From the NCBI GenBank assembly GCA_013329055.1, contig DUKY01000016.1, positions 4,559 to 68,558 of the forward strand: a DNA stretch of 64,000 nucleotides, given 5' to 3'. Under the pieces are notes generated by a model. That model did not search any database. It was not told the DNA's origin and saw only the letters and a program-made list of their open reading frames with translations. Every line of letters begins with the position of its first letter. The first letter of the stretch is position 1. Origin of the DNA: Nanobdellota archaeon. Lineage in GTDB: Archaea > Nanobdellota > Nanobdellia > Pacearchaeales > GW2011-AR1. The position numbers were made by a program, and so were the translations under genes. Below, one piece after another: positions 17,932 through 37,770 of the stretch.

Positions 17932-18134
17932 ATTCAAAATCAAACTGTGCCTTCGCACAGAAAACTATTAAAGATTTTGAATACAAAGAAAATCTTGGAA
18001 AAAATTTTCTAGCATTTCCATTTCAGGAGAAATGAAAATACAAAGAAAATCTTGGAAAAAATTTTCTAGCATTTCCATTTCAGGAGAAATGAAAATACAA
18101 AGAAAATCCATAAAAAAGGAGAAATGAAAATATG
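17932..18134. repeat. hairpin element plus 57-bp tandem repeat containing an SD/ATG-like motif
   Basis: attcaaaatc..ctgtgccttcgcacag..gattttgaat, then a 57-bp unit x2 plus a partial (17980-18108); ggagaaatgaaaata occurs three times. Confidence 0.85.
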
Positions 18135-18905
18135 AATAAAAGAGGGCAAATGACTATATTTTTAATTATTGGGATAATCCTTATTGCTATTGCAATAATT
18201 TTATTTTTTTTGAACAAACAAGATATTTTAAATCCAAATCAAATAGAGGTAGATAAAAAAGAATTTTTACAGACATGCATTGAAGAACGAATTACAGAAA
18301 CAGTTAATTTAATTGCAATACAAGGCGGATCAATTAATCCAACTTTAAAGAAAACATATGATTTAGAAGATGGACTTGGAAAGAAAAATATTTCAATATT
18401 ATGTTATAATCAAAATTTTTACACGCCATGCATTAATCAGGAACCAATGCTGGTTAATCATGTTAGAGAGGAAATTGAAAAAAATATTAGTCAAGATGTT
18501 AAACAATGTTTTGATGATTTGGTTATAAGTTTAAATAAAAAAGGATTTGAAACAAGTGCATTATACAAGGGTTTTGAAATTAAATTACAACCTGATAAAG
18601 TTATTTTAGAGATTTATGGAGAGATTACAACTACCAGAACAGATGAAACTAAAAAGGAAAAAGATTTTGAAATTATAGTTAAAAGCAAGTTCTATAATTT
18701 AATAATTGTTGCTCAAGAAATACTCAGCCAAGAAGCAAGATTCTGTCATTTTGAAAATCTTGGTTATATGTTATTTTATAAAAATTTTAATATTGATAAA
18801 TTCAAAACAGGAGATTTTTATACATTTTATACTGTAGAAGACAGAGACAGCCAAGAAAAATTCAGGTTTGCAATAAGGGGGTGTGCAATTCCTCCGGGAA
18901 TATAA
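18132..18905 (+). CDS. class III (type IV pilin-like) signal peptide protein, paralog 1
   Basis: MNKRG|QMTIFLIIGII; conserved C...QGG...LCY...CINQEPML...RGCAIPPG. Confidence 0.8.
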   Translation: MNKRGQMTIFLIIGIILIAIAIILFFLNKQDILNPNQIEVDKKEFLQTCIEERITETVNLIAIQGGSINPTLKKTYDLEDGLGKKNISILCYNQNFYTPCINQEPMLVNHVREEIEKNISQDVKQCFDDLVISLNKKGFETSALYKGFEIKLQPDKVILEIYGEITTTRTDETKKEKDFEIIVKSKFYNLIIVAQEILSQEARFCHFENLGYMLFYKNFNIDKFKTGDFYTFYTVEDRDSQEKFRFAIRGCAIPPGI

Positions 18906-18909
18906 AGAG

Positions 18910-21900
18910 ATGGTAAAACATAATCAAAAAATTAATTTAATGTTAATTGTATTTTTTCAAATAATTTTAATATTAAATATGACTTTTGCAGAAAGTTATT
19001 TTTTACATCAAGCAGACCAAATAACAGAGAATATAATTAGTGATAAAAATGACAAAGATTTATCGGATTTAATTTCAAAATTTTTAATTGATTTTTTAAT
19101 TATAAAACAAATTGGAACAGTTTCTGCAATTGGCTGGAGTTGTTGCCCTGAAACAATTATAGGTGCAAAATGCCAAGAACTTGCAAGTGTTGATACTGAA
19201 AGCTGTGCTGTTGAGATGATTCCTTCTAAATGTGAAGAATTTTCAGATTGCCAACTTGGTTGCTGTGTTGATGAAATTGAAGGGCTTTGCAGTACAAAAA
19301 CTCCTAAATCAATTTGTAAAAGGGATAATGGTACTTGGAGTGAAGATGAAAATTGCTTGATTCAAGAATGCCAAAAAGGATGCTGTATGTTAGGGGAAGA
19401 AGCTTCATTTGTTACTGAAACCAGATGTGAACAGCTTTCGGATATCTCCGGAACACAAAAAGATTTCCGAGATATAAATAATGAAGTGGATTGTCTTATG
19501 CAAAAAGTAAGTTCTAAGTTAGGAGCCTGTGTATTGGATTTTGAACCAATAATGAATCGTACTAATAAAACTAATTCATCTATTACAGGAGCAATAATCT
19601 CTAATTCAACAAATAATAGAACAAGCACAAATTTTACTGATGATGAAACTTGCAGGATTGTTACAGAAAGCGAATGCTACGAAATGGGGGGAACATTTGC
19701 CGGGGGTTATTTATGTTCACACCCTGATTTAAATACCGGATGCAAAAGACAAACAACAATTAATTGTGTTGATTCAAGTGATGAAATTTTCTGGTTTGAT
19801 TCTTGCGGTAATAAAGAAAACATTTATTCTTCAGACAGGGATGCTTCATGGAATGGAGGGATGATGATGAGTAAAGAAAAAAGTTGCAATCCAGATGTAT
19901 CAAATGCAAATTCAAAGGATTGTGGGAATTGCAATTATTTTTTAGGAAGTATTTGTCAAGAGAGTAAAAACCCTAAGGTAAAAGATGGAAATTTTATCTG
20001 CAAAGATATGGATTGCATTGATGAAGATGGAACTAAAAGAAAAAACGGAGAGAGCTGGTGCATATATGATTCTTATATTGGAGACGGAAAAGATACTGTT
20101 GGAAGCAGACACTGGAAAAGAATGTGCATTGATGGAGAGATAAAAGTAGAACCTTGTGCAGATTATAGAGGAGAAATTTGTGTTCAGGCAAAAAATGAAG
20201 AAGGCGAATCGTTTTCATATGCAGCATGTGTTGTGAATGAAGCACTTGCATGTATTTTAGAGTATAATTCTTTAGAAACAGAAGAAGAACGGGATGCAAA
20301 GTGTTTAGAGAATAAAGATTGCATGATTAAAGAAGTTAAAGTGAGTAAAGACTTTACTTATGATATCTGTACTTCGAGATATCCTAAAGGATTTGATTTA
20401 GTAGAAACTGAAAAGGGTAAAACTCAAGAGAGATTATGTGATATCGGTTCACAAAATTGCACAGTTTTATTAAAGAAAGGTTGGTTTAAAAGTGATTATA
20501 CTTGTGAAAAAAATTGTGAATGCAAAACTAAATTATTTACTCAACAATTAAATGATGTTTGTATTTCCCTTGGAGACTGCGGTTCTTATATTAATTTTGT
20601 AGGAGACGGGAGCGATAATATTATTGTTAAAAATACTGAAAAGATTTCTTGGAGAGATTATATCGGTTTTGCTGAACCTGTAAAAGGTCAATTTGCTGAA
20701 CCAAAAAAGAATCGAGGACCAATGGGAGGAGAATCTAATGGAACAGACAGAAAAAGCAATGTTAAAGGGGATGATTTAAGTGGTCTTGATATGCTTGGAA
20801 CTATTGCTGGGGGTCTTGGGACATTAGTGGGAGGGGCACAATATTTATATGGGGGAGAGATACTTTATGCTTCAGGATATGGTTTTTTTGCTGCAGAGGG
20901 AGCTAGTGCAGGAGTTGGAGTTACACCAGTATTTGCTTCTTTTGGAGCAGCAGCAGCAGGTTTTGCAATTGGTTCAATAATTGGTTCTTATTGGGCTAAA
21001 TCAATTGGAGCTACTAAAGAAACTGCAATGATTATGGCAATTTCCGGAGGGGTTGCAGGAGCTGCAATAGGTTATGCTTTAGTACAAGCATCAATTTCTA
21101 CTTTCAACATTTATGTTATTGTTATAGCAATAATTATTATGATAATTGCTGCACTTTTTGGACCTAGATATAAAACTGAAAAAGTTACTTTCAAATGCCA
21201 GCAATGGTCTGCACCTACAGGAGGAGAAAATTGTGAAAAATGCAATGAAGACCCATTAAAACCATGTTCGGCATATAGATGCAGTTCACTTGGACAAGCT
21301 TGTCAACTTATGGAAAATGATACTAAAAACCCGATTTGCATTGGAAGTGATGATGATGGTAAACCCCCGATTATATTTCCATTAAATACATCAGAAGGAT
21401 ATAAATTCTTTGAGAAAACAAATGATGGAGTAAAGATACGAACAGATAATCAAAAATGCATTCCTGAATTTACAATGTTTGATTTTTCTTTAGGAACTGA
21501 TGAACTTGCTCAATGTAAGTATAGTTTTGAAAAAACAAAAGATTATGAAGAGATGACTGAAACATTCTTGGAATCAAATTCATATTCAATGAATCATTCA
21601 ACATCGTTTATGATGCCAAGTATTCAAAGTTTAGAAAATGATATTAATGACACAGAAATTACTGTTATTCAAGATTTAAAGGAAACATATGCTAAATTAA
21701 ATTTATATGTTCGTTGCCAAGATGTATATGGTAATAAAAATGTTAGAGAATATATTGTTAATCTTTGCATTAATGACGGACCTGATTTAACTGCTCCATA
21801 CATTAAACAGATGGATCCAAAAAATGGAGGCAACATTAAATTTAATTCTACACAAGCACAAATTACTGCTTATGTTAATGAACCTGCAGATTGTAAATAT

Positions 21901-22920
21901 GATACCATCCCGAAAAAAGCATATGAACAAATGAATAACTCGATGCAATGCAATACTCAATTAGATGGTTCTGGTTTATATGGCTGGCCATGTCAGGCGA
22001 CATTTAGTAATTTAAAACCTGGTGCAAATAAATTTTATCTAAAATGCAAAGACCAGCCTTGGTTAAATGAATCAAATACTTCAAGAAATGCTAATACAGA
22101 AGATTATATTTATACTTTAAATGTTGCTGAAAAAAAGTTTAATATTTCTTCTATTTCTCCTCAGGGTATAATTAAAAATGGTTTTGCTCCTTCACAGGTT
22201 AATTTAGAAGTTCAAACAATTGGCGGGGTAGAAAATGGCAAGGGAACATGCGAATATAGTTTTACACAAAATGGTGAATATTATCAATTCTTTTCTACAT
22301 TTAGTGCCAAACATAAACAAACATTTGAATTAATGGGAGGAAATTATACTATTTATGTTAAATGCGAAGATGAAACAAATGATCAAGATAGCAGAATATC
22401 ACAATTTGATTTACAGATTGATTCAACACCTCCGGTTGTAATAAATTATACTGAAGGAGAAAAAATTGAATTTTATACTGATGAAGATGCTGAATGTTAT
22501 TATCATCCTTCTAAATGTAATTTTGATTTTGAAAATGGCACTTTAATCAGTACTAAATTTACAACAGAACATCAAATTACATTTGACCCTAGCATAACAT
22601 ATCATATTAAATGCACAGATGTGTGGAAAAATACTAATCCTGATTGTGCAATTATTTTGAATGCTCCGGATTTAGACCTTCCAATGATTGTCAGGGCTTA
22701 TAATTCAAATTCTGAATTGAAGATTATGACTGATAAGATTTCTAAATGTTATTATGATTTTGAAACTTGTTTATTTAATCCGGTTAATGCTCCGTCTATG
22801 ACTGCAGATTTGACAAAAGAGCATACAGTTAATTGGATTCCCGGAAAAGTTTATCATATTAAGTGTGCAGATGCCTGGGGCAATTTTCCAATTGATTGCA
22901 CACGAAAAATTTCGATGTAA
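18910..22920 (+). CDS. large secreted Cys-rich protein with central hydrophobic Gly-zipper region and C-terminal Ig-like repeats, paralog 1
   Basis: Signal peptide; dense CC/CxxC N-half; GTIAGGLG..GAAAAGFAIG..IAIIIMIIAALFG; repeated TDE.A.C.Y...H...Y..C.D units. Confidence 0.85.
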   Translation: MVKHNQKINLMLIVFFQIILILNMTFAESYFLHQADQITENIISDKNDKDLSDLISKFLIDFLIIKQIGTVSAIGWSCCPETIIGAKCQELASVDTESCAVEMIPSKCEEFSDCQLGCCVDEIEGLCSTKTPKSICKRDNGTWSEDENCLIQECQKGCCMLGEEASFVTETRCEQLSDISGTQKDFRDINNEVDCLMQKVSSKLGACVLDFEPIMNRTNKTNSSITGAIISNSTNNRTSTNFTDDETCRIVTESECYEMGGTFAGGYLCSHPDLNTGCKRQTTINCVDSSDEIFWFDSCGNKENIYSSDRDASWNGGMMMSKEKSCNPDVSNANSKDCGNCNYFLGSICQESKNPKVKDGNFICKDMDCIDEDGTKRKNGESWCIYDSYIGDGKDTVGSRHWKRMCIDGEIKVEPCADYRGEICVQAKNEEGESFSYAACVVNEALACILEYNSLETEEERDAKCLENKDCMIKEVKVSKDFTYDICTSRYPKGFDLVETEKGKTQERLCDIGSQNCTVLLKKGWFKSDYTCEKNCECKTKLFTQQLNDVCISLGDCGSYINFVGDGSDNIIVKNTEKISWRDYIGFAEPVKGQFAEPKKNRGPMGGESNGTDRKSNVKGDDLSGLDMLGTIAGGLGTLVGGAQYLYGGEILYASGYGFFAAEGASAGVGVTPVFASFGAAAAGFAIGSIIGSYWAKSIGATKETAMIMAISGGVAGAAIGYALVQASISTFNIYVIVIAIIIMIIAALFGPRYKTEKVTFKCQQWSAPTGGENCEKCNEDPLKPCSAYRCSSLGQACQLMENDTKNPICIGSDDDGKPPIIFPLNTSEGYKFFEKTNDGVKIRTDNQKCIPEFTMFDFSLGTDELAQCKYSFEKTKDYEEMTETFLESNSYSMNHSTSFMMPSIQSLENDINDTEITVIQDLKETYAKLNLYVRCQDVYGNKNVREYIVNLCINDGPDLTAPYIKQMDPKNGGNIKFNSTQAQITAYVNEPADCKYDTIPKKAYEQMNNSMQCNTQLDGSGLYGWPCQATFSNLKPGANKFYLKCKDQPWLNESNTSRNANTEDYIYTLNVAEKKFNISSISPQGIIKNGFAPSQVNLEVQTIGGVENGKGTCEYSFTQNGEYYQFFSTFSAKHKQTFELMGGNYTIYVKCEDETNDQDSRISQFDLQIDSTPPVVINYTEGEKIEFYTDEDAECYYHPSKCNFDFENGTLISTKFTTEHQITFDPSITYHIKCTDVWKNTNPDCAIILNAPDLDLPMIVRAYNSNSELKIMTDKISKCYYDFETCLFNPVNAPSMTADLTKEHTVNWIPGKVYHIKCADAWGNFPIDCTRKISM

Positions 22921-23557
22921 CGTAGAATTTCGAAATTTTTCGTGCCACTAAATCACCAAACGCCTTGCCTACGCAAGGAAAAAAACAAGATTTAGTTTGC
23001 ATGAAAAATCTCGATGTAAAGAATGAAGTGCCACTAAATCACCAAACGCCTTGCCTACGCAAGGAAAAAAACAAGATTTAGTTTGCATGAAAAATCTCGA
23101 TGTAAAGAATGAAGTGCCACTAAACCCCCCGCTGTGTCTACACACAGAAAACTATTAAGGATTTAGTTGGCACGCAAAATTTCAATGTAAAGAATGAAGT
23201 GACACTAAATCACCTACGCCTTGCCTAAAGCAAGGAAAAAAACAAGATTTAGTTTGCATGAAAAATTCCAATGTAAAGAATGAAGTGACACTAAACCCCC
23301 CGCTGTGCCTTCAACAAGAATCAAAGATTCTCGAGCATGACAACTTCACGAAACAACAAGAAGTTGTCATACGCACAGAAAAATATTAAAGATTTAGTCG
23401 GTGCTAAAGATTCAAAGAATCTTGGTTCCACTAAATCCTGCTGTGTCTACACACAGAAACTATTAAGGATTTAGTCGGCATGAAAAATTTCGATGTAAAG
23501 AATGAAGTGCCACTAAATCACCAACGCCTTGCCTAAAGCAAGGAAAAAAACAAGATT
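22901..23557. repeat. array 1 of composite palindromic units (about 86-bp period, 7 units)
   Basis: Repeating gtgccactaaa-[inner hairpin]-gatttagtt(t/g)gca(t/c)gaaaaat.tc.atgtaaagaatgaa. Confidence 0.92.
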
Positions 23558-23597
23558 AAACCCAAAAGGTAATAAATAACAAAAATTTAAAATTAAT

Positions 23598-24395
23598 GTG
23601 AAAAAAGAGATGAGTTTTGATAAAAGAGGACAGATGACGATGTTTATTGTAATTGCGATTTTAATTATTAGCGGAATTGCACTACTAATATTTTTTAATA
23701 AAGGGACTCCATTAATCGGAAGTCATCAGGAAATTAATAAAAAAGAATTTTTAGAAAGTTGTGTTGAAGAAGAGGTCAAAAATACATTAGAAATAATTGG
23801 TTTACAAGGAGGATATTTTAGCGAGAGCAAAATAATGACTAAGCCATTTAGTTCAGGAAGTACATATGGACAAAAAAACATTGCAGTTTTATGTTATAAT
23901 AAAAATTATTTTGATCCTTGCATTAATCAGGATCCTATGTTAATTCAGCATTTAAATGATGAAATTAAATTGGGGATTTCTAAAACTGTTAAAGATTGTT
24001 TTGATGCTTTAACATTAAGTTTGGAAAATCAAGGATTTGAGGTACAAGCAAAATATAATGGGTTTGATGTCCAATTATTGCCTGAAAAATTAAAATTAGA
24101 TATTAAGGGGGAAATTACAATAAGTCAAACAGGATCTACAACAAAAGAAAAAGATTTTGAAATTCTTTTTAGAACCAGATTATATGATATCGCAATAGTT
24201 GCCCAGAATATTATTAATCAGGAAGCTTCAACATGTTCATTTGACCATTCAGGGTTCATGTTATATTTTAAAGAATTTAGTATTGATAAAATAAGAACTT
24301 CAGATTCATTTGATATATTTGCAGTTAAATCTAAAGATAGTTATGAAATATTTAATTTTGCATTAAGAGGATGTGTAATTCCTCCGGGAGTATAA
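23598..24395 (+). CDS. class III signal peptide protein, paralog 2
   Basis: DKRG|QMTMFIVIAIL; ends RGCVIPPGV; start may be the ATG at 23610. Confidence 0.8.
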   Translation: MKKEMSFDKRGQMTMFIVIAILIISGIALLIFFNKGTPLIGSHQEINKKEFLESCVEEEVKNTLEIIGLQGGYFSESKIMTKPFSSGSTYGQKNIAVLCYNKNYFDPCINQDPMLIQHLNDEIKLGISKTVKDCFDALTLSLENQGFEVQAKYNGFDVQLLPEKLKLDIKGEITISQTGSTTKEKDFEILFRTRLYDIAIVAQNIINQEASTCSFDHSGFMLYFKEFSIDKIRTSDSFDIFAVKSKDSYEIFNFALRGCVIPPGV

Positions 24396-24396
24396 A

Positions 24397-27300
24397 ATGG
24401 ATAATAAAATTAAATTCAAATTAGGACTAATTGTTTTCTTAATTGGATTTTTAATTATGAACAACATTTATGCTTTGGATATTAATTGCTGTCCAAAAAT
24501 GATTGATAAATCCATATGCCAAGAAATCCTTGATACAGATACATCAACATGTTCTGTATCTCCACTTCCGGTTAGATGTGAAGAGTTTTCGGATTGCCAA
24601 TTAGGATGTTGCATTGATAAAACTGAAGGTCTTTGCACAACTCAAGCTCCAAGATCAGCCTGTGAAGATAATAATGGAACTTGGGAAGATGATGCATCAT
24701 GTTCTATTTCAGAATGTCAAAAAGGTTGTTGTGTAATTCAGGAGAATAGTTTATTTGTAACTGACCAAAGATGCGACCAGCTTTCAAATATTTCAGGAGT
24801 TGAAAAAGATTTTAGAGAAGTACAAACAGAGATGCAATGTCTGATGTTAAAAGGAAGCGGTGACAAAGGTGCTTGTGTTTTTGGATTTGTACCACGTATT
24901 AATGAAACTAATAATACAAAAAATAATTCCAAAACTATTAAACCTTATACTTCTAATAATACTATTAATAATTCTAATTCTACGAATAATACAAATTCGT
25001 CTATCACAGGTTACCTTGTTTCAAATAATTCAAGAATGCCCAGAGAATCAAATGAATCAGAAGAAGATAATGGTGCTTGCAGGATTACAACTGAATCTGA
25101 ATGTTATGACATGGGGGGAATGTTTGCTAATAGCTATTTATGTTCTCACCCTGATTTAAATACCGGATGTAAAAGACAGACAAGTATTGATTGTTCTGAT
25201 ACAAGTGATGAAATTTTTTGGTTTGATTCCTGCGGGAATAAAGAGAACATTTATTCTTCAAATAAAGATGCTTCGTGGAATGGCGGGATGATGATGAGCA
25301 AAGAACAAAGTTGTGGAGCAGGTTCTTCAAATGCTAATTCACAAGATTGCGGTAACTGTAATTATATTTTGGGAAGTATTTGTGCTGAAAGTGAAAACCC
25401 TAAAGTTAAAGACGGAGATTTTATCTGCAAAGATATGAATTGTGTTGAGAAAGATGGGACCAAAAGACAAAATGGTGAAAGCTGGTGTGTATATGATTCT
25501 TATATTGGCGACGGAAAAGATACTGTTGGAAGCAGACACTGGAAAAGACTCTGCACTGATGGGGAGATAGATGTTGAACCTTGTGCAGATTATAGAGCAG
25601 AACTTTGTGCACAAAAAGTAACAGAAGTTGAAATGCCTGAAGGGGGAAAAAAATCACTTACTGTTGCTAAGTGTGTTATTAATGAAGGGTTAAATTGCAT
25701 CTTTGATTATAATGACCCCAAGGATGCTGAAAAAACTGCAAAATGTTTGAAGAATACTGATTGTATGATTAATCATGTTTATGTAAGTGAATACTTTCAA
25801 TTTGATTTTTGCACTGCAAGGTATCCAAAAGGATTTGAATTAAAAAATGAAGATGATAAAGAAGACAGGGGGGTTAAACAAAAAGCATTATGCTCAATGA
25901 GTTCACAAAATTGCACAGTTATCTATGAAAAAAAGAGAAAAGGAATGTTTGGCAGTAAATGGGTGTGTGTTGCTAACTGTGAATGCCAAACAGATGCATT
26001 TATCGCAGAAATGAATGATCTTTGCATCTCTATGGGAGATTGCGGAACTTACATTAATTATATTGGAGAAGGAACAAAGAATATTGGTTTAGTGAATAAC
26101 CCTGGAGATGTTGCTTGGGAAGCATACAAACATTTTGCAGAACCAGTTAAGGGTCAATTTGTTGCACCAAAAGAATTTAGAGGTCCACAAGGAGAGGCTG
26201 GAGGAGAAGAGGAGATTAATACTTATAGACATAAATATACTAATGGTTATAGCGGAGAAGTTAATATTTGGGGAACTAATCCGGATGATGGATGGATTGC
26301 TAATTGGAACGGGCATGTTGAGATAAAATGGCTTTCAAAAACTTTTGGAATGGATGATTATGATGCTTATATGTGGTCGCAATTAACAACAGTAATTATT
26401 AAAAAAGAACTTTTGGGAGTTTATGAAACTGGTAGTTATGGAATTCCTTCAATTGTATGGGTGATTATTGATTGGATACAGGGAATTGGAAAAACTAAAA
26501 AAGTAATTGTTGAATTTCATTGTAATCCTTGGAAAGCTCCGTTAGGAGGGATAAATTGTGAAAAATGCAATGGTGATTTATTAAAACCTTGTTCAAAATA
26601 TAGATGTGATTCTTTAGGGCAAGCGTGTATGTTATCAAATTTAAGTGTTGAATTTCCACTTTGTTTATCTGCAGATGCTAATGACGGTAAACCGCCAGTT
26701 ATTTCTCCACTTAATGTTTCTAAAGGTTACAAATTCATGGAAGAAACAGCAAATGGAGTAAAGATTAGAACTGAAGATGGAAAATGCATACCGGAGTTTA
26801 CTACTGTTAAATTTTCTTTGAAAACAGATAAATTTGCTCAATGCAAATACAGTTTAAATAGAACTAAAGATTATACAGATATGGATTTATCTTTTGCAGA
26901 AACAACTGCTTTTACGAAAAATCATACAACCTCTTTTATGATGCCTAGTTATGATAGTTTAATTAATGAACTCGATCCTGAGGTAGAATTTAGTCGGGAT
27001 AAATTTGCAAATTTCGATATGTTTGTCAGATGTCAAGATGGATATGGCAATGTGAATAAAGTTGAATATGTTGTTAATCTTTGTGTTAATGATGGACCGG
27101 ATAAAACTGCTCCGTGGATAACAAGAGTTATTCCGGAAAATGGGAAAACTTTAAGATTTAATACTACAAGTAGTCCAGTTACAGTCTATGTAAATGAACC
27201 TGCAAATTGCAGATATGATACAATTGCAAATAAAAAATATGAAAATATGACTTATAACATGACATGCCAAACTGAACTTTCACAGGTAAGTCTTGGTGGC

Positions 27301-28236
27301 TGGCCTTGTTCTGCAAATCTTACTAATTTAAGTTTAGGAAATAATAATTTTTATTTTAAATGCAAAGATCAGCCTTGGTTACCGGAAGATAATGAAACAA
27401 GGAATGTTAATTCAGAAGATTATGTTTATTCGTTGTATGTTTCAGAACATAAATTTAATATTAGTTCAATTTCTCCTCAGGATATAATCAAAAACGGATT
27501 TGAGCCTGCTCCTGTAACATTAAAAGCTCAAACTTTTGGGGGAGTAGATTCAGGAAAAGGTACATGTGAATATAGTTTTGCACAAAACGGAAGTTATTAT
27601 CAATTCCTTAAAACATTTGGATATACTCATACGCAAGTATTTGATTTAATGGGAGGAAATTATACTATTTATGTTAAATGCCATGATGAATCAGACGACG
27701 AAGCTTATGGAACTGCAAATTTTGAATTACAAATTGATACAACTCCGCCAGTTATAATTAATTATTCTGAGGATGGAAAAATTGAACTTTATACAGATGA
27801 AAAAGCTGAATGCTTTTATCATCCGACTAAATGCAACTTTGATATTGATAATGCTACTTCGATGACTGTTGGTTTTTCACAAGAACATTTTGCAAATTGG
27901 GACCCAGGTATTACTTATCATGTTAAATGTGCAGATGTTTGGGGTAATACTAATCCAGATTGTGCAGTTATTTTGAATTCTCCGGATTTAGAACTTCCAA
28001 TTATTACCAGAGCATATAATGCGGGCAATTCATTAAATATTATTACTAGTGAAATTGCTAAATGTTATTATGATTTTGAAACGTGTTATTTTAAACCGGA
28101 AAATGCTCCATCTATGACTCCGGATTTAGAAACAGAACATACAGTTAATTGGATTCCTGGAAAGGTTTATCATATTAAATGTGCTGATGCATGGGGCAAT
28201 TATCCTATGGATTGCTCACGAAAAATTTCGATGTAG
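24397..28236 (+). CDS. large secreted Cys-rich protein, paralog 2 (different central region)
   Basis: Collinear with paralog 1 (e.g. YDSYIGDGKDTVGSRHWKR, ends RKISM) except for the central segment. Confidence 0.85.
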   Translation: MDNKIKFKLGLIVFLIGFLIMNNIYALDINCCPKMIDKSICQEILDTDTSTCSVSPLPVRCEEFSDCQLGCCIDKTEGLCTTQAPRSACEDNNGTWEDDASCSISECQKGCCVIQENSLFVTDQRCDQLSNISGVEKDFREVQTEMQCLMLKGSGDKGACVFGFVPRINETNNTKNNSKTIKPYTSNNTINNSNSTNNTNSSITGYLVSNNSRMPRESNESEEDNGACRITTESECYDMGGMFANSYLCSHPDLNTGCKRQTSIDCSDTSDEIFWFDSCGNKENIYSSNKDASWNGGMMMSKEQSCGAGSSNANSQDCGNCNYILGSICAESENPKVKDGDFICKDMNCVEKDGTKRQNGESWCVYDSYIGDGKDTVGSRHWKRLCTDGEIDVEPCADYRAELCAQKVTEVEMPEGGKKSLTVAKCVINEGLNCIFDYNDPKDAEKTAKCLKNTDCMINHVYVSEYFQFDFCTARYPKGFELKNEDDKEDRGVKQKALCSMSSQNCTVIYEKKRKGMFGSKWVCVANCECQTDAFIAEMNDLCISMGDCGTYINYIGEGTKNIGLVNNPGDVAWEAYKHFAEPVKGQFVAPKEFRGPQGEAGGEEEINTYRHKYTNGYSGEVNIWGTNPDDGWIANWNGHVEIKWLSKTFGMDDYDAYMWSQLTTVIIKKELLGVYETGSYGIPSIVWVIIDWIQGIGKTKKVIVEFHCNPWKAPLGGINCEKCNGDLLKPCSKYRCDSLGQACMLSNLSVEFPLCLSADANDGKPPVISPLNVSKGYKFMEETANGVKIRTEDGKCIPEFTTVKFSLKTDKFAQCKYSLNRTKDYTDMDLSFAETTAFTKNHTTSFMMPSYDSLINELDPEVEFSRDKFANFDMFVRCQDGYGNVNKVEYVVNLCVNDGPDKTAPWITRVIPENGKTLRFNTTSSPVTVYVNEPANCRYDTIANKKYENMTYNMTCQTELSQVSLGGWPCSANLTNLSLGNNNFYFKCKDQPWLPEDNETRNVNSEDYVYSLYVSEHKFNISSISPQDIIKNGFEPAPVTLKAQTFGGVDSGKGTCEYSFAQNGSYYQFLKTFGYTHTQVFDLMGGNYTIYVKCHDESDDEAYGTANFELQIDTTPPVIINYSEDGKIELYTDEKAECFYHPTKCNFDIDNATSMTVGFSQEHFANWDPGITYHVKCADVWGNTNPDCAVILNSPDLELPIITRAYNAGNSLNIITSEIAKCYYDFETCYFKPENAPSMTPDLETEHTVNWIPGKVYHIKCADAWGNYPMDCSRKISM

Positions 28237-28895
28237 GGAAATTTCGAAATTTTTCGTGCAACTAAACCCCCCACTGTCCTTCAACGAGAATCAAAGATTC
28301 TCGAGCATGACAACTTCACGAAACAACAAGAAGTTGTCATACGCACAGAAAAATATTAAAGATTTAGTTGGCATGAAAAATTTCAATGTAAAGAATAAAA
28401 TGCCACTAAATCACCAAACCTTAAGCAAGATTTAGTTTGCATGAAAAATTTTAATGTAAGTTTAGAAAAACTAAATCAACCAACGCCTTGCCTACAATGA
28501 GAATCAAAGATTCTCAAGCATGACAACTTCGCGAAACAACAAGAAGTTGTCATACGCAAGGATTAAAACAAGATTTAGTTGGCATGAAAAATTCCAATGT
28601 AAAGAATGAAGTACAACTAAATCACCAAACGCCTTGCCTACGCAAGGATTAAAACAAGATTTAGTTTGCATGAAAAATTCCAATGTAAAGCGAAAGTTTA
28701 GTGCCACTAAACCCCCGCTGTGCCTTCAACGAGAATCAAAGATTCTCGAGCATGACAACTTCATGAAACAACAAGAAGTTGTCATACGCACAGAAAAATA
28801 TTAAAGATTTAGTCGGTGCTAAAGATTCAAAAAATCTTGGCACAACTAAATCACCAAACCTTAAGCAAGATTTAGTTTGCATGAAAAATTCCAAG
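28217..28895. repeat. array 2 of composite palindromic units (6 units, 3 with the nested 60-bp insert)
   Basis: Same actaaa...tttagt outer stem and gcatgaaaaatt.caatgtaa linker as array 1. Confidence 0.92.
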
Positions 28896-28947
28896 AGTAA
28901 ATTTCAATTTGGTTAACTATATAAATAATAAATTACATAAAATAAAT

Positions 28948-29703
28948 ATGAAAAGGGGACAGGTTACATTATTTATAATCATGGGTATGATGATTATTAT
29001 ATTAGGTATTTTATTATTCCTTTTTTCTCCAAAAATACAAGATCTTTTCTTAACTGAAACAAAAAATCCTTCTTCGTTTATTCAGGATTGCATTGAAGAA
29101 GATATCAGTTTAGCAGTTAATGTATTATCTTTAAATGGGGGAAGCATTAATCCTGAACATTATTTTGTTTATGATGGTTCAAGATTAGAATATTTGTGTT
29201 ATATCGAGGGATTTTATCAAACTTGTGTTGTTCAGCAACCTATGTTAAAGAGACATATTGAGATGGAAATTGAAAAAGCAATTACTCAAAAATCTGAAGA
29301 ATGTTTTGCGGATTTAAAAGAAAGTTATGAAAGGAAAGGTTATCAAGTAAGTTTATCTAAAGGAGAGATTGATGTTGAACTTTTGCCTCAAAAAATTGTT
29401 ACGACTTTTAATAATTCTTTAACTTTGACTAAAGAATCAACAGAAAGTTATAAATCAGTAAGAGTTGTAATAAATAATAATCTTTATGAATTGGTAAGTA
29501 TTGCTAATAGTATTATAGATTGGGAATCAAAATACGGAGATTCTGAAACAACAGTTTATATGAATCTTTATCATGATTTAAAGGTTGAAAAGAAAGTACA
29601 TTCCGAGGGTACAACGGTTTATGTTTTAACAGATAGAGATAATTTAAATAAATTCCAATTTGCTTCAAGAAGTGTGGCATGGCCACCAGGATATGGATTT
29701 TAA
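28948..29703 (+). CDS. class III signal peptide protein, paralog 3
   Basis: MKRG|QVTLFIIMG; FIQDCIE..GGSI.P..YLCY..CVVQQPML..RSVAWPPG. Confidence 0.8.
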   Translation: MKRGQVTLFIIMGMMIIILGILLFLFSPKIQDLFLTETKNPSSFIQDCIEEDISLAVNVLSLNGGSINPEHYFVYDGSRLEYLCYIEGFYQTCVVQQPMLKRHIEMEIEKAITQKSEECFADLKESYERKGYQVSLSKGEIDVELLPQKIVTTFNNSLTLTKESTESYKSVRVVINNNLYELVSIANSIIDWESKYGDSETTVYMNLYHDLKVEKKVHSEGTTVYVLTDRDNLNKFQFASRSVAWPPGYGF

Positions 29704-29704
29704 A

Positions 29705-30055
29705 ATGAAAGAAGAATTTAAACAATGGTTACAAATGGCTAAAGAAGACAGTAACGAAAAATTATTAAAAGATTTTAAAGATAAACTTTCAAATCATATT
29801 CCGATAACTAAAATGTTATTATTTGGTTCAAGAGCAAGAAGAGATGAAAATAAATGGAGTGATTTTGATTTAATAATTGTCAGTGATAATTTTCAAAATA
29901 AAGACACATTACACAGACCTTTTGAGTTATATGATTATTGGGATTTAGATTATCCTGTAGATTTTATATGCTACACTCCTAAAGAATATAATAAACTCAA
30001 AAATAAAATGGCTATTTTAAAAAATGCATTAAAAGAGGGAATAGAAATAAAATGA
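29705..30055 (+). CDS. MNT nucleotidyltransferase fused to a HEPN N-terminal stub
   Basis: LFGSRAR...SDFDLIIVS; the N-terminal MKEEFKQWLQMAKED resembles a HEPN first helix. Confidence 0.75.
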   Translation: MKEEFKQWLQMAKEDSNEKLLKDFKDKLSNHIPITKMLLFGSRARRDENKWSDFDLIIVSDNFQNKDTLHRPFELYDYWDLDYPVDFICYTPKEYNKLKNKMAILKNALKEGIEIK

Positions 30056-31596
30056 AAAACAAAATAATTTTTAGTTTGGTGTTAGGTATCTTTTTAATTA
30101 GTTTAGCTTATGCAGATATATCTTATTGTTGTGAAAAAACAGTTAATGGTGCGTGGTGCCAAAATTCTCCAAAAGAAAATTGTGACGAGGGATTTAGAAG
30201 CACTCCTGCTTCATGTGAAGCTACTTCTTATTGTAAACTTGGAACTTGTATGGATAGTCAAGAAGGGACTTGCATGGAAAATTCTCCTCAAAAAGTTTGT
30301 GAAGAAAGCGGGGGAGTTTGGAAGTTAGGTTCTGCTGATGAAATTCCACAATGTTCTTTAGGTTGCTGTGCAATTGGTGACGGGGCAGCGTTTGTTACTC
30401 AAACAAGATGTAAAAGACTTTCATCAATTTATTCATTAAAGACTGATTTTAGGACAGATGTTGCAAGTGAATTTGAATGTATTTCAAGTGCTAAATCAAG
30501 TGCTAAGGGTGCTTGTGTATTTGAAAGTGAATACCAAAGAACTTGTTTACTTTTAAGTCAGGCAGAATGTTCAGAGAGGGGGGGAACAAATGAAAGTGAA
30601 TTTCACGAGGGATATTTATGTTCTGATGAATCATTAGGTACAGATTGCGGTCCAACTGAACAAACAAGATGTGTTGAGAATAGAGATGAAGTTTATTTTG
30701 TTGATAGTTGCGGTAATTTGGCGAATATTTACGATGCTTCAAAAATAAAGGATAAAAATTATTGGTCTAAGATTTATGATAAAACACAAAGTTGCGGGAC
30801 TGATTCCGGAAATGCTAATTCTGCTTCTTGTGGTAATTGTGATTATTATTTAGGTAGTATGTGCAAAGAATATAAAAGAGATGCTGATAAAGTTCAGCCA
30901 AATTATGGGAATTTTATTTGCAGAGATTTAAGCTGTAATTTTGATGGTAAAAAATATAATCATGGTGAAACATGGTGTCAAAATAGTGAAGGTGTAGATA
31001 AGAATTTACCTGGAAGCAGATATTTTAGGGCAGTATGTTACAATGGGGAAGTCAGTATTGAACCTTGTGCAGATTTTAGACAAGAAATTTGTTTAGAATC
31101 AAAGGTTGAAAGTTTTTCTGCTGCTGGTTGCATTGCAAATAAATGGCAAGATTGTTTTAGTCAAAGTAGTCAAAAAGATTGCGAAAACCAAGATAGAAGG
31201 GATTGTGTTTGGATGGAGAAGGTAAATCTTACCGGGGGAAATACTTCTAAAGGAGTTCAATGTGTTGCTAAATTTGCTCCGGGATTTAAATTCTGGGAAT
31301 CCGGAAGTCAGACACAAACGAGTACAACACCCACAACAACTACTGGAAATGCTAGTGCTGGTGCAGGTTCTAATAGTTCTAATTTTGGTGCGATGCCTTC
31401 TCAATCTCAGTCATTATGTTCACTTGCAGATTCTAAATGTACAGTGCAGTATGAAAAAAAATTGTTTGGCAGTAAAAAATGTGTTAAAAATTGTGAATGT
31501 TTAGACCAAAAATGGCAGGAAACTCAAAATGAAATTTGTGTTTCAATCGGGGATTGCGGAAATTCTACTAATTTTATTGGTGTTAAGGGATATTAA
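30052..31596 (+). CDS. secreted Cys-rich protein, paralog 3 (N-terminal half only)
   Basis: CCEKT..CQ..LGCC..FVTQTRC..DSCGN..GSRYF..EPCADFRQEIC..; stops at IGDCG..NFIG. Confidence 0.82.
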   Translation: MKNKIIFSLVLGIFLISLAYADISYCCEKTVNGAWCQNSPKENCDEGFRSTPASCEATSYCKLGTCMDSQEGTCMENSPQKVCEESGGVWKLGSADEIPQCSLGCCAIGDGAAFVTQTRCKRLSSIYSLKTDFRTDVASEFECISSAKSSAKGACVFESEYQRTCLLLSQAECSERGGTNESEFHEGYLCSDESLGTDCGPTEQTRCVENRDEVYFVDSCGNLANIYDASKIKDKNYWSKIYDKTQSCGTDSGNANSASCGNCDYYLGSMCKEYKRDADKVQPNYGNFICRDLSCNFDGKKYNHGETWCQNSEGVDKNLPGSRYFRAVCYNGEVSIEPCADFRQEICLESKVESFSAAGCIANKWQDCFSQSSQKDCENQDRRDCVWMEKVNLTGGNTSKGVQCVAKFAPGFKFWESGSQTQTSTTPTTTTGNASAGAGSNSSNFGAMPSQSQSLCSLADSKCTVQYEKKLFGSKKCVKNCECLDQKWQETQNEICVSIGDCGNSTNFIGVKGY

Positions 31597-31657
31597 TTAC
31601 CAGAAAAAATTATTTTGAATGGATTAACTTTATATAATTTAAAGAATTAGAAAATAC

Positions 31658-32365
31658 ATGAAAGGAGTTATTTTAGCAGGAGGAACAGGATCAAGATTAT
31701 TTCCTTTAACAAAAGTTACAAATAAACATTTACTTCCAATTTATAATAAGCCAATGATTTATTATCCCCTTCAAACATTAATTAGTGCAAATATTAAGGA
31801 GGTTTTAATAATTTCAGGTCCAGAACATGCAGGGCATTTCTTAAATTTGCTTGGTTCAGGAAAAGAATTTGGAGTAAAATTTACTTATGAAATTCAAGAA
31901 AAAGCGGGAGGAATTGCTCAAGCTCTTAGTCTTGCAGAGGATTTTTCCAATAATGGTCCGATTACAGTAATTCTTGGGGATAATATCTATGAAGATAACT
32001 TTAGTGAAGAAATAAAATCTTTTGAAAAAGGAGGGATGATTTTTTTAAAAGAAGTACAAGATCCGGAAAGATTCGGTGTTGCTGAATTAAATGGAAAAAA
32101 TGTAATTAAAATAGAAGAAAAGCCAAAAATACCAAAATCAAATTATTGTGTTACGGGACTTTATGTTTATGATAATGAAGTATTTAGTGTCATTAAGACT
32201 TTAAAACCATCTAAAAGGGGAGAACTGGAAATAACAGATGTGAATAATTATTATATAGATAAAAATGCTATGAAAGCAGAATTTGTAAAGGGTTTTTGGA
32301 GTGATGCTGGAACTTTTGAAAGTTTAATTAAAGCTTCTAATTTAATTAGAGAGAAAATTAATTAG
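31658..32365 (+). CDS. rmlA: glucose-1-phosphate thymidylyltransferase (short form)
   Basis: GVILAGGTGSRLFPLT..NKHLLPIYNKPMIYY, PSKRGELEITD, WSDAGT. Confidence 0.9.
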   Translation: MKGVILAGGTGSRLFPLTKVTNKHLLPIYNKPMIYYPLQTLISANIKEVLIISGPEHAGHFLNLLGSGKEFGVKFTYEIQEKAGGIAQALSLAEDFSNNGPITVILGDNIYEDNFSEEIKSFEKGGMIFLKEVQDPERFGVAELNGKNVIKIEEKPKIPKSNYCVTGLYVYDNEVFSVIKTLKPSKRGELEITDVNNYYIDKNAMKAEFVKGFWSDAGTFESLIKASNLIREKIN

Positions 32366-32386
32366 TTTTTTAAATATTAAAAAGAT

Positions 32387-32548
32387 TTAATATTTTGCTA
32401 ATTCTTTAAATAAAAGCTCATCTTCTTTTAATACAATTTCCCCAGCAATTTTTACAAGTTTCAAAAATTTAAGATCATTTTTTGAAAGTTTGTCTTTTTT
32501 TGAAAATTCATATACAATTTTTTTAGTTACTTTTATATCACTATCCAT
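32387..32548 (-). CDS. small putative antitoxin
   Basis: Ends EDELLFKELAKY, like Doc-associated antitoxins; overlaps the doc stop. Confidence 0.5.
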   Translation of the reverse strand: MDSDIKVTKKIVYEFSKKDKLSKNDLKFLKLVKIAGEIVLKEDELLFKELAKY

Positions 32549-32889
32549 TTTCTTCATCTCCCAACATGATATTAACAAAAGTTCTACTTAAATAATTTTC
32601 TAATATTTTTTCACTAACAGGTATACAATTCTCTTGAATCCAGACTTTAATTTCATCAAATGTTACTTTACTATTATATTCGGCAATCTTTATAATAAAA
32701 TTAGTTGCTTCTTTATATTTAATTTTCAAATGACATTTATTAACTAACATCAAAGTTTTAGCAATAGCATACGCAGTTTTTTTATTTCCATCCATAAAAT
32801 AATGCCTACGAGCAAATTCATTTAATGCAAATGCACCAATATTTGAGGGAGAATTTTTTTTTATTCTGATAATTTAACAATTTATACAT
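32541..32889 (-). pseudogene. Fic/Doc toxin, 5'-disrupted
   Basis: Frame upstream of the annotated Met reads NIGAFALNEFARRHYFMDGNKKTA (Fic motif); the ATG at 32889 is out of frame across an A9 run. Confidence 0.75.
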
Positions 32890-33076
32890 TGAATTATAAA
32901 TTCCTCCTTCATCACGAATACCATTTGTTCCTCCATTTTTCGAGGTTTATTCCAATAAGAACTTTTACATTTTGGACAAACTTTAGGGATAATATTTTTT
33001 CGAGGCTTCCAATTATGATAGCACCTAAAACAAAAAAGATTATTATCCTTAACCCTATATACCTATATTTAGGCAT
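32874..33076 (-). pseudogene. Zn-ribbon small protein, frameshifted
   Basis: LFCFRCYHNWKPRKNIIPKVCPKCKSSYWNKP; the ATG at 33076 is shifted by an apparent TATAGG duplication. Confidence 0.65.
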
Positions 33077-33140
33077 ATATCAAAACTTTTCTTTTTTAAT
33101 TAATGGGATATTTTAAATAATCAATAAATTTATTTTCTAG

Positions 33141-34322: not shown

Positions 34323-34416
34323 TCTCTGTGCCACTAAACCCCAACTGCTGTGCCTACGCACAGAAAGTACCAAAGGTTTAGTTGACACTAGAGATCATCA
34401 CAAGATAATTTCTGTG
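34300..34416. repeat. single palindromic unit flanked by a duplicated ychF terminus
   Basis: cactagagat(t/c)atcacaagataat(c/t)tctgtg at 34300-34330 and 34386-34416, around ccactaaacc..ctgtgcctacgcacag..ggtttagttg. Confidence 0.9.
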
Positions 34417-37769: not shown

Positions 37770-37770
37770 T

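Follow-up and report, generated by a model that had tools for sequence, protein, structure and literature searches.

Bacterial MITEs make short target duplications of fixed length and have recognisable parent insertion sequences. REPs cause no duplication of their target and need a RAYT of the Y1 HUH type. Cas1 duplicates a repeat of about 30 nt during CRISPR spacer integration and 14-15 nt in casposons, tyrosine recombinases acting at secondary sites share just a few bases with them, and integron attC sites combine a conserved outer stem with a variable inner stem. In the window, by which we mean the whole 64,000-nt stretch of DNA analysed here, we found small hairpin-forming cassettes that a tiny groundwater archaeon has accumulated after several of its genes, each beside a second copy of the end of the adjacent gene. 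We put the probability at about 0.5 that the arrays arose by tandem accumulation of a small non-coding cassette that was inserted at gene borders with target duplication and then reshuffled within arrays, the mode of insertion itself being deduced. The cassettes and the duplicated gene ends would then point to an undescribed route by which DNA is added at gene borders while the genes stay unbroken.

The first-pass annotation had described arrays of seven and six units behind two Cys-rich genes, an inverted copy of the gene end, inner types A, B and C and a particular unit order in each array, and all of these were present in the sequence far beyond chance (Table 1). The orders were A,A,B,A,B+,B,A(truncated) in array 1 and B+,C,A+,A,B+,C in array 2. 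The outer stem was also present but longer than first described: the module, termed Y, spans 32-110 nt, and inside its 11-bp terminal inverted repeat (GTGCCACTAAA / TTTAGT(T)GGCAC) lie an asymmetric internal loop rich in A and an upper hairpin of 6 bp, whose CTAC-type loop is able to hold additional hairpin modules. In particular, B+ is type B with a two-hairpin module of roughly 60 nt within its upper loop, and the loop of A+ holds the same module in a type A unit. The companion module X is a near-palindrome, rich in AT, that carries a GC clamp and a single bulged base. Across the whole 1.19-Mb assembly, the outer stem ACTAAAYC...GRTTTAGT occurred as 14 complete copies and one 3'-truncated copy (seven in array 1, six in array 2 and one each at ychF and the 958-aa gene), all on the + strand at 22.9-37.8 kb of the window. 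Both arrays, taken as single strands, folded far better than shuffles (z -9.4 and -14.6; 0/20 shuffles each). The promoter region of a 265-aa gene comes after the last unit of array 1.

Table 1. Coordinates of the genes, hairpins, units and border copies within the window.
Feature	Position	Strand	Basis or remark
Y element related to the units, B core, lower stem ATTCAAAATC, upstream of 257-aa gene	17932-17982	+	conserved in L043
Cys-rich gene 1, 1345 aa	18883-22920	+	
X0 hairpin, 15-nt perfect inverted repeat	22901-22944; arms 22901-22915 / 22930-22944	+	inverted-repeat search
Array 1 unit 1, type A, upper stem CCTTGC-CTAC-GCAAGG	22947-22996	+	
Array 1 unit 2, type A	23033-23082	+	
Array 1 unit 3, type B, CTGTGT-CTAC-ACACAG	23119-23167	+	
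Array 1 unit 4, type A with CTAAA loop	23204-23253	+	counterpart present in L043
Array 1 unit 5, type B+	23290-23398	+	97% identity to array 2 B+ units
X-like spacer hairpin GGTGCTAAAGATTC..GAATCTTGG, array 1, replacing a terminus copy	23401-23431	+	
Array 1 unit 6, type B	23430-23475	+	
Array 1 unit 7, type A, 3' outer stem truncated	23512-23560	+	positional counterpart in L043
Five terminus-like spacers, array 1	22999-23019, 23085-23105, 23170-23190, 23256-23276, 23478-23498	+	motif search
Cys-rich gene 2, paralogous to gene 1, 1279 aa	24397-28236	+	
X0' hairpin around gene 2 stop codon	28217-28258; arms 28217-28231 / 28244-28258	+	inverted-repeat search
Array 2 unit 1, type B+	28261-28368	+	
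Array 2 unit 2, type C, made up of just the outer stem with loop ACCAAACCTTAAGCAA	28405-28436	+	
Array 2 unit 3, type A+	28470-28579	+	
Array 2 unit 4, type A	28616-28665	+	
Array 2 unit 5, type B+	28706-28813	+	X-like spacer hairpin of array 1 recurs after it
Array 2 unit 6, type C	28845-28876	+	followed by final degenerate terminus copy to about 28905
Four terminus-like spacers, array 2	28371-28391, 28439-28459, 28582-28602, 28668-28688	+	motif search
ychF end, copy 1, codons ..LEIITR*	34300-34330	+	
Lone type-B unit 3' of ychF	34333-34382	+	
ychF end, copy 2, less perfect palindrome	34386-34416	+	
958-aa gene end, copy 1, with the gene's TGA	37629-37656	+	
Canonical X hairpin CACTAAAAATTTGC-AA-GCAAATTTTGGTG after 958-aa gene	37681-37709	+	
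Short Y unit ACTAAATCC..GGATTTAGT after 958-aa gene	37712-37743	+	
958-aa gene junction, copy 2	37748-37775	+	now bears ribosome-binding site and ATG (37771) of 171-aa gene

The paralogous Cys-rich genes (68-87% identity) terminate in CACGAAAAATTTCGATGTAA (gene 1) and CACGAAAAATTTCGATGTAG (gene 2). A 15-nt perfect inverted copy lies 3' of each gene end, and the stop codon is therefore within a hairpin loop; in gene 1, the final six codons and the stop lie in the 5' arm and loop of X0, a hairpin that L043, a syntenic contig, has retained. With at most two mismatches allowed, the 21-nt motif of the terminus, GCAYGAAAAATYYCRATGTAA, was found 11 times, with none expected from 100 shuffles. The RKISM tail was absent from the 24 homologues of the Cys-rich genes in other genera, and what is re-copied as a "terminus" is probably one arm of an element, that is, the 5' arm and loop of an X-type hairpin in which the ORF stops by chance; the spacer copies would mostly be degenerate X arms, and both ORFs would end inside the first X hairpin.

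Native gene ends were duplicated at single elements. Lone elements behind ychF and the 958-aa gene, each between two copies of that gene's own end, were confirmed, with zero such copies expected by chance. At ychF, the two 31-nt copies differ at two positions, the first together with 8 nt past the stop forms a perfect 10-bp hairpin, and the C-terminus RDALEIITR* is native and conserved. The 28-nt copies at the 958-aa gene have three mismatches; here the element does lie between two end copies, but the X hairpin and 20 nt of filler separate copy 1 from it. The border copies differ mostly by synonymous changes (5/5 substitutions in the ychF case of G005 and 2/3 at the 958-aa gene), which is not what neutral decay of a target duplication predicts. 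New sites with native targets were ychF, the junction of the 958-aa and 171-aa genes, an HtpX-like gene (metagenome contig L107) and eIF2-gamma. Events of the same type were also seen at further places in this genome and in other metagenomes.

Judged by comparison with relatives, the units are insertions, because the corresponding sites lack them: the element after ychF was absent in 19/19 relatives, and neither array nor terminal duplicate was found in any of the 24 homologues of the Cys-rich genes from other genera (best match 17/24 nt). No same-species empty-site allele was seen for ychF or the 958-aa gene. The proposal of non-coding insertions at gene borders was borne out, with direct border copies of 22-40 nt and empty sites in relatives. 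We suggest that a cassette would be copied into a gene border in a step, either staggered breaks or a template switch of replication at a hairpin, that duplicates 20-40 nt of target, so that the gene on either side would keep its stop codon, ribosome-binding site or start codon. Through slippage or unequal recombination, arrays then gain, lose and swap entire units, which the duplicated border copies and the shared stems make possible.

The arrays vary between strains, as had been predicted. In contig L043, whose flanking genes are 92.5-92.8% identical to those of the window, the array has four units (A, A*, C, A-truncated) compared with seven here, and the first and last units are conserved. 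Units 1 and 2 of array 1, each with its spacer, are identical over 86 nt, and the window, unlike L043, has a tandem duplication of 57 nt in which a ribosome-binding site is copied again; slippage or unequal crossing-over therefore acts, and the earlier idea that each step of array growth duplicates 25-35 bp of target became unnecessary. The B+ units of the two arrays, 5.3 kb apart, share 96-97% identity, against 68-87% for the paralogous Cys-rich genes, which indicates recent movement or exchange. Unit 5 of array 2 with its X-like spacer hairpin matches array 1 over a 147-nt block at 94.6% identity. At least part of the growth of the arrays is simple tandem duplication and exchange from one array to the other.

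It is also conceivable, although rather unlikely, that nothing has transposed: replication slippage, template switching and gene conversion would have amplified and locally rearranged an old hairpin at each site; stable hairpins would stall forks, and duplicated gene ends would be by-products of out-of-register restarts. The 86-nt identity and the 57-nt duplication fit this explanation, all 15 ACTAAAYC copies lie within 15 kb on one strand exactly as local copying predicts, and the inverted gene-end copy is an expected strand-switch product. However, at three unrelated native gene ends the copies enclose one and the same cassette, again with the 11-bp inverted ends, and the empty ychF sites of all 19 relatives also speak against an old hairpin. 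The exact 16-nt B core was found in 4/120 genomes, belonging to four genera, at non-orthologous sites and always with different lower stems, which likewise counts against local copying. Short-range direct repeats are intergenic in 129 of 268 cases despite 86% ORF coverage of the genome, and no transposase was found in the 85%-complete assembly, both in keeping with local copying; a template switch would still require a donor copy, at which point this explanation shades into enzyme-free copy-in transposition.

Gene-end duplication is a genome-wide habit: a copy of at least 19/24 nt followed within 300 nt downstream of 21/1198 ORF ends, compared with 1/1198 in the permuted control. Among near-exact repeat pairs, 17 overlap a stop codon, and in 16 of these the real stop belongs to the upstream copy. 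The duplications vary widely in length, from 13 to >40 nt, which is unlike any single known transposase. The targeting of protein-gene termini was borne out as regards gene borders but was not specific, since related elements lie within or behind T-arm copies of tRNAs and also between ribosome-binding site and start codon.

The window units form a local subfamily within a broader X-Y superfamily of modular hairpins, whose members occur in DPANN genomes of the Woesearchaeota type at gene borders and beside or within tRNA T-arm copies. The X pattern occurred 21 times in this genome and was present in 16/120 family genomes (reversed-pattern controls, 0-1). Of 29 Y elements, 25 had a lower stem of 7 bp or more without any mismatch, compared with 3.8% of shuffles; in the Y upper stem, 97.1% of cells were paired and 5/6 pairs had changed on both sides, which 0/500 shuffles matched. 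Both stems are thus maintained by compensatory changes, and the folded strand is therefore read by selection or by a copying machinery.

Selection on the fold would also be expected if the modules were kept mainly as hairpins at transcript borders, where they could stabilise 3' ends, serve in termination or processing or shape 5' leaders; the tRNA splicing endonuclease might even excise them (EndA is encoded in the genome), and spread and duplications would be secondary. Stop codons lie within strong hairpins at four independent gene ends, and a B-core hairpin together with a second hairpin stands in sense just upstream of the P0-P1, S28e-L24e and S12 ribosomal-protein genes of other genera; 16/20 intergenic modules with a downstream feature in this genome face as that feature does, the cases not being independent. 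We nevertheless consider this role unlikely as the main explanation, as Rfam gave no match to the modules at gathering or E<=5, module positions are not conserved between genera and the copies behind tRNAs are antisense to them. Those copies are X-Y modules within partial T-arm or 3'-end copies of the tRNA, whose end is re-copied with every unit. In G055, X-Y modules interrupt full tRNA-like genes; cassette-free copies exist for both interrupted tRNAs, and splicing is therefore not required. The T-arm insertions showed no evident bulge-helix-bulge.

A partial copy of a tRNA 3' end lying behind the intact tRNA is the trace classically left by tyrosine recombinases, and the cassettes could accordingly be stubs of integrative elements that entered at gene and tRNA 3' ends, with the repeated gene ends as attachment sites and the arrays as successive, later decayed integrations. 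The only tyrosine recombinase match in the 85%-complete genome was a XerC/D-like pseudogene fragment at 5006-5209, which adjoins a 22-nt duplication of the eIF2-gamma end, and no intact integrase was found there. The claim that the window holds no enzyme therefore stands only in part: no candidate enzyme was found in the genome, but this fragment is in the window. We regard integrase scars as very doubtful, since a hairpin with inverted ends abutting the repeats accounts for the entire insert without the look of decayed cargo, one insert is shared among unrelated targets, and recombination at secondary sites would share few bases instead of 22-40 nt. Integrating elements have, in PMC3293823, been proposed to cause gain of tRNA fragments and introns, which agrees with such scars. 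The assembly also gave no match to Y1_Tnp, the TnpB domain, RVT_1, Cas1, IS110 or rve. HUH genes did not co-occur with the modules (5/16 module-bearing genomes vs 38/120 overall), and the analogy with REP/RAYT drawn at first failed on this and on the missing Y1 gene.

Compared with known systems, the cassettes resemble the Correia/NEMIS, RUP and ERIC MITEs in being short, non-coding, multi-copy and intergenic, with terminal inverted repeats and hairpin folds, and in being able to supply transcript-border signals. Unlike MITEs, they show target duplications of variable length and modules that are nested and have recombined, and this genome yielded neither a parent element nor a transposase. With REP/BIME/REPIN they share extragenic imperfect palindromes, a bulged base and clustered mosaics after genes, but they have target duplications, and neither a Y1 gene here nor co-occurrence across 120 genomes was found. 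Cas1 systems (CRISPR and casposons) similarly show long duplication of a palindromic target by a gene or tRNA 3' end and stepwise array growth, whereas here cas1 was not found in this genome and was found in 1/5 module-rich relatives, and the inserts are a few recurring hairpins and not unique spacers. The non-canonical or transposed introns of archaeal tRNAs and integration-derived tRNA fragments (PMC3293823) are likewise short structured T-arm inserts, with partial tRNA copies nearby and hosts having a broad-specificity splicing endonuclease; in contrast, the interrupted tRNA-like genes of G055 are redundant, no bulge-helix-bulge was seen, and modules also stand behind protein genes. Finally, integron attC sites have the same two-stem hairpin, with an outer stem, an unpaired spacer, an inner stem, a variable terminal structure and extrahelical bases, and likewise form arrays of structurally similar, sequence-diverse sites. 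RYYYAAC/GTTRRRY core sites, ORF cassettes and an integron integrase were not seen here by eye, and the pattern of conservation is the reverse of that in attC: in the cassettes, the inner stem is conserved and the outer stem is variable.

Direct reading of the region, together with repeat tools, matched the description in the first-pass annotation almost line by line. Both large Cys-rich genes ended in the common terminus reported there, and an inverted copy of it, perfect over 15 nt, was found 12-14 nt past each gene end, which places the stop codon in the loop of a strong hairpin (X0). Array 1, behind Cys-rich gene 1, contained seven units in the order A, A, B, A, B+, B, A (truncated), and array 2, behind Cys-rich gene 2, contained six in the order B+, C, A+, A, B+, C; letters denote the unit type, and a plus sign marks an extra module in the upper loop. 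Both shared the outer stem ACTAAAYC...GRTTTAGT. Re-copying of the terminus was evident from a 21-nt terminus-like motif, of which the window contained 11 occurrences where 0 were expected. Single-strand folding of the two arrays gave z-scores of -9.4 and -14.6. The outer stem proved longer than had been described, since GTGCCACTAAA and TTTAGT(T)GGCAC form a duplex in which one T is bulged, and the ends of the spacers (the terminus-like sequence between units) are thus themselves part of the hairpins. This ACTAAAYC-type element was present in 15 copies of 32-110 nt, ending in GTGCCACTAAA and TTTAGT(T)GGCAC, and its outer stem was restricted to 15 kb of the window, on one strand throughout. The single unit after ychF was flanked by two 31-nt copies of the gene end with 2 mismatches, and the end of the 958-aa gene was duplicated with 3 mismatches in 28 nt. 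The window contained no tRNA. Small ORFs of 27-43 codons cross the units; as real genes they were judged unconvincing beside the covariation of the stems. The defence-island-like genes elsewhere in the window include a minimal nucleotidyltransferase (PDC-S09/M05A-like), a 171-aa PDC-S13/Bro-N-like protein, a 446-aa Schlafen/AlbA_2 ATPase with a winged helix and an NYN nuclease, a relative of which lies at a different place in the metagenome contig L043.

Coordinates of the features discussed (window positions unless a contig, C, of the source genome assembly is named)
Feature	Location	Strand	Details
XerC/D-like tyrosine recombinase, C-terminal fragment	5006-5251	+	in-frame TAA; no recognisable N-terminal part; only Phage_integrase match in the 85%-complete source assembly
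eIF2-gamma end duplication	5260-5281 and 5319-5340		gene 5326-6516, minus strand; exact 22-nt direct repeat across the stop, 37-nt insert between
Tandem repeat	17980-18108		57-nt unit, 2.3 exact copies; X-like hairpin and ribosome-binding region of the 257-aa gene in each; extra 92 nt absent from L043
Cys-rich gene 1	18883-22920		1345 aa; ends in CACGAAAAATTTCGATGTA(A/G)
Cys-rich gene 2	24397-28236		1279 aa; ends in CACGAAAAATTTCGATGTA(A/G)
Defence-island-like genes	29660-40084 and 54682-55269
Tandem repeat with hairpins	38010-38201		87 nt x 2.2 copies, within the 171-aa ORF
Giant ORF	40170-53597		4475 aa; largely repeats, period about 153-159 nt (roughly 52 aa)
Tandem repeat with hairpins	58865-59033		85 nt x 2.0 copies, directly after the 1179-aa gene
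Second structured repeat family	C11:43373-46231, C24:33692-34544	-
Second structured repeat family	C13:16756-17302, C18:130706-130972, C5:1-141, C9:7425-7543

Comparison with related loci showed that the cassettes are insertions with long flanking duplications, that their units have been gained, lost and exchanged, and that their structure is conserved. The C-terminus of YchF (RDALEIITR, then the stop) is native. It was conserved across 19 relatives from other genera, and all 19 lacked the element after ychF. At 24 loci of Cys-rich homologues from other genera, the stop was followed directly by the promoter region of the next gene, no terminal duplicate was found (best match, 17/24 nt), and the RKISM tail was not conserved; one of these loci (L176) carried unrelated hairpins. 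L043 was syntenic with the window, with flanking genes 92.5-92.8% identical, and revealed the same array architecture in an independent assembly. Its array held four units (A, A-star, C, A-truncated) compared with seven in the window; X0, the first unit and the last unit were all retained. The arrays are therefore not invariant across strains, a point on which the first-pass reading depended; this comparison covered array 1 and its surroundings. The metagenome scan with a loose pattern returned 116 loci, among which only L043 and a second contig, L107, were true relatives, the rest being chance or coding matches.

Two different processes were apparent in the change of the arrays. Unit 1 with its spacer was identical to unit 2 with its spacer over 86 nt, and upstream a 57-nt repeat, absent in L043, re-copied the ribosome-binding site of the next gene; both are straightforward tandem duplications. 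Between the two arrays, B+ units were 96-97% identical, compared with 68-87% for the preceding paralogous genes, and the same cassette was found at ychF and the 958-aa gene, which indicates that units moved or were exchanged between sites. The earlier proposal is supported in the long flanking duplications and the differing arrays, but one target duplication per insertion event is not needed for array growth. Purely local slippage and conversion, to which the tandem repeats would conform and a shared cassette between copies of unrelated native gene ends would not, is in our view an unlikely explanation of the whole.

Gene borders are habitually duplicated throughout the source genome. A copy of the last 24 nt (at least 19 matches) was found within 300 nt downstream of 21 of 1198 ORF ends, against 1 in a permuted control, and among 17 near-exact short-range repeat pairs overlapping a stop codon the real stop lay in the upstream copy in 16. 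At the 953-aa gene, a 40-nt duplication ending exactly at the stop surrounded a 152-nt structured insert that contained both module types, Y (a lower stem with an upper hairpin) and X (an AT-rich near-palindrome). Similar arrangements were present elsewhere: ychF of the family genome G005 was followed by a different hairpin and then a second copy of the terminus, and the HtpX-like gene on L107 had a duplicated end with a ACTAAATC-stem element. At four independent gene ends, the gene-proximal copy formed a strong hairpin including the stop codon and the distal copy a poorer palindrome. The flanking duplications measured 22, 28-33, 31 and 40 nt, and 13 to at least 36 nt behind tRNAs. The 958-aa and 171-aa genes formerly overlapped (ATGA), and the duplication gives each its own copy of the junction. 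The eIF2-gamma end repeat directly adjoins the recombinase fragment. We also observed a second structured repeat family in the source genome, a hairpin GTGGYATY-CACGAAGG..-RATRCCAC closed by ACCCG../..CGGGT, some copies of which hold Y and X; it is likewise flanked by 35-98-nt copies of adjacent gene ends.

The elements belong to a wider family of X-Y modules. The upper hairpin CTGTGCCTWCGCACAG with an A-rich 3' linker occurred at nine places in the source genome, within different, perfectly pairing lower stems, and the lower stem reached at least 7 bp in 25 of 29 such Y elements compared with 3.8% of shuffled controls. In the Y upper stem, 97.1% of cells were paired and both sides had changed at 5 of 6 pairs, a result reached by none of 500 shuffles. 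The X module has the form G(T/G)(G/C)CTAAAAAATT..AATTTTTGG(C/G)AAC, with a covarying clamp and a bulged A, and stands before Y-type hairpins. Its pattern was found 21 times in the source genome and in 16 of 120 family genomes, none of which is of the same genus, with 0-1 matches for reversed-pattern controls; the exact 16-nt core of the type B hairpin was present in 4 of the 120. Module-rich genomes were the source genome, G050, G126, G055 and G074, whereas about 100 genomes carried no module. About 5 of 22 matches in the collection of species genomes were real and the rest chance, the real ones being recorded as Woesearchaeota, Pacearchaeota or 'archaeon', plus one titled Omnitrophota. Among viral contigs, the X-Y pattern gave no match, and the four B-core matches, all of about 50% G+C, were unrelated. 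A+ and B+ hold a two-hairpin module of identical type, about 60 nt long, within the upper loop, which indicates that modules nest in the loops of other modules.

This modular build also bears on the re-copied terminus. X0 resembles the canonical X module (..GAAATTTTTCGTGCCAC compared with ..GAAATTTTTGGCAAC), the spacers correspond to X0 without its 3' arm, and the six C-terminal codons of the Cys-rich genes are lineage-specific; from these likenesses we infer that the two ORFs probably read on into an X hairpin, with their stop codons in its loop. Both arrays would then be of the form (X-Y)n, as is the X-Y-X-Y run found on contig C26. At ychF and the 958-aa gene, unlike the arrays, the duplicated sequence was the native target.

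In the source genome, most X-Y modules lay directly behind tRNA genes, in antisense orientation and embedded in partial copies of the tRNA's T-arm and acceptor 3' strand; relatives showed the same arrangement. At multi-unit sites each unit re-copied the tRNA 3' end, over 13 nt on C26 and at least 36 nt on C20. In the family genome G055 the module interrupts the T-arm, and deletion of X-Y restored full tRNA-Ile(GAT) and tRNA-Arg(CCT). Module-free copies of both were present among 40 Infernal matches in this genome, so splicing of X-Y is not required there, which speaks against an obligatory tRNA intron. The splice motif of archaeal tRNA introns consists of two 3-nt bulges around a 4-bp helix; no such bulge-helix-bulge was visible around the insertions in minimum-energy folds and by eye. 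As a separate observation, G055 (L026, L027, L224) has a tRNA-like gene family sharing an acceptor stem and a leader-trailer helix (TAGATGG..CCATCTA); three members are interrupted by X-Y, and an uninterrupted one, with the anticodon-loop sequence CTTCAAT, was missed by ARAGORN. Without its intron mode, ARAGORN found only 25 tRNA genes in the source genome. Several contigs of this assembly (C4, C20, C26) end inside X-Y or Y modules, and the repeats therefore probably break the assembly.

Could the elements be primarily functional RNA hairpins at transcript borders? In other genera the B-core hairpin with a second hairpin lies in the sense orientation just upstream of the ribosomal-protein genes P0-P1, S28e-L24e and S12. 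These positions were not shared with the source genome. Rfam gave no match at the gathering threshold for the window as a whole; for 22800-29000, a cutoff of E<=5 also brought up nothing relevant. The window stretch was present in 20 sequencing runs from 12 studies, with no RNA run among those listed. We regard a primarily RNA-level role as distinctly unlikely. H/ACA or C/D guide RNA, K-turn, hammerhead, promoter and palindromic operator were each rejected for the Y hairpin, as their boxes were absent and both half-sites covaried (by eye against the consensus).

How the first cassette copy enters is a step that we infer. We give a probability of roughly one half to a model in which staggered breaks, or a template switch provoked by a hairpin, would copy a cassette in and duplicate 20-40 nt of the border, with unequal recombination to follow. 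The differences between border copies, mostly synonymous (5/5 in ychF of G005, 2/3 at the 958-aa gene), fit neatly neither this copy-in model nor any rival. The gene-border bias may be explained by selection in an 86%-coding genome, without target specificity, because only insertions duplicating a stop, a ribosome-binding site or start signals would survive. More tentatively, and with odds well below even, the copy-in events might reflect a new insertion process in this DPANN family, which would recognise folded hairpins (tRNA T-arms, stop-codon hairpins, loops of earlier cassettes), copy small structured cassettes in and duplicate 20-40 nt or more of border; its agent might be an unrecognised integrase acting like Cas1 on a palindromic target, or enzyme-free replication template switching. 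If so, selfish or regulatory hairpins could colonise ultra-compact genomes without breaking genes and build CRISPR-like stepwise arrays.

The usual picture of DPANN genomes is one of streamlining and little mobile DNA; this one 1.19-Mb genome holds modular hairpin cassettes by the dozen, at the borders of genes and tRNAs. In practical terms, the arrays probably disrupt assembly, keep tRNA-like genes from being recognised by standard finders and alter annotated protein C-termini. The T-arm insertions may also bear on the long-standing question of how archaeal tRNA genes gain inserts and fragments, for which PMC3293823 proposes integrating elements as a source of tRNA introns and fragments.

Searches of the 85%-complete source assembly found no Y1 HUH (profile PF01797), TnpB, reverse transcriptase, Cas1, IS110 or rve genes. 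Genes present in several copies often go missing at contig ends, so these negatives are not proof of absence. The co-occurrence with HUH enzymes that had been suggested as a check was not seen, as PF01797 was present in 5 of 16 genomes with the X module compared with 38 of 120 overall; Cas1 was present in one of five module-rich relatives. The statement that the enzyme is not in the window stood insofar as no intact recombinase was found, although a XerC/D-like fragment with an in-frame stop is present. The 958-aa and 514-aa proteins were rejected as candidate enzymes, with no Pfam, NCBIfam, PHROG or PADLOC match and no usable Atlas match. Relatives in the family, as seen in G074 (L254, L255), have a number of divergent Y1 transposase genes of IS200 type. 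Many of these lie at contig ends, and GTCCC-NNN-GGGAC hairpins flank them; the copies were rejected because these hairpins differ from, and are unrelated to, X-Y.

Among known systems, attachment sites of integrative elements (accretion, CIME-like) share direct repeats equal to the target gene 3' end. Such sites enclose an integrase and cargo or their remains, whereas the insert here is wholly hairpin and no recombinase was found other than a fragment at a distance of 18 kb; decayed accretions of this kind are very improbable. A CRISPR array has identical repeats, unique spacers and cas genes, whereas here both alternating parts recur and no cas1 was found in the source genome. Cas1-type integration is similar in its long duplication at a palindromic target and its stepwise arrays, and differs in that the inserts recur and no cas1 was found. 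PATEs derived from IS200/IS605 have a TnpA/TnpB partner, not found here, and insert 3' of a fixed short motif without duplication. Integron attC sites have conserved R''/R' core sites and an integron integrase; in a comparison by eye with the consensus, no such core sites were evident. The proposed analogy to REP/BIME/REPIN held insofar as the hairpin repeats are small and form mosaic clusters at the borders of genes, a likeness shared with MITEs, but no RAYT was found in the source genome, Y1 HUH genes did not co-occur with the modules across the family, and flanking duplications, absent on REP/REPIN insertion, are present. As in MITEs, the elements are short, non-coding and multi-copy (15 copies) with terminal inverted repeats. 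However, MITEs have a short target duplication of a length fixed by the transposase, compared with a variable 22 to 40 nt here (13 to at least 36 nt behind tRNAs), and an autonomous parent with the same ends, compared with no transposase family in the source genome and ends confined to the 15-kb region. Our full-text literature search found no description of such elements in DPANN. The cassettes are of interest for how long their duplications are, which is unusual, for the way their modules nest and for the link to the tRNA T-arm; with duplications far longer than in known miniature transposons and no known transposase found, the cassettes offer a testable system for the gain of DNA at the borders of compact genomes.
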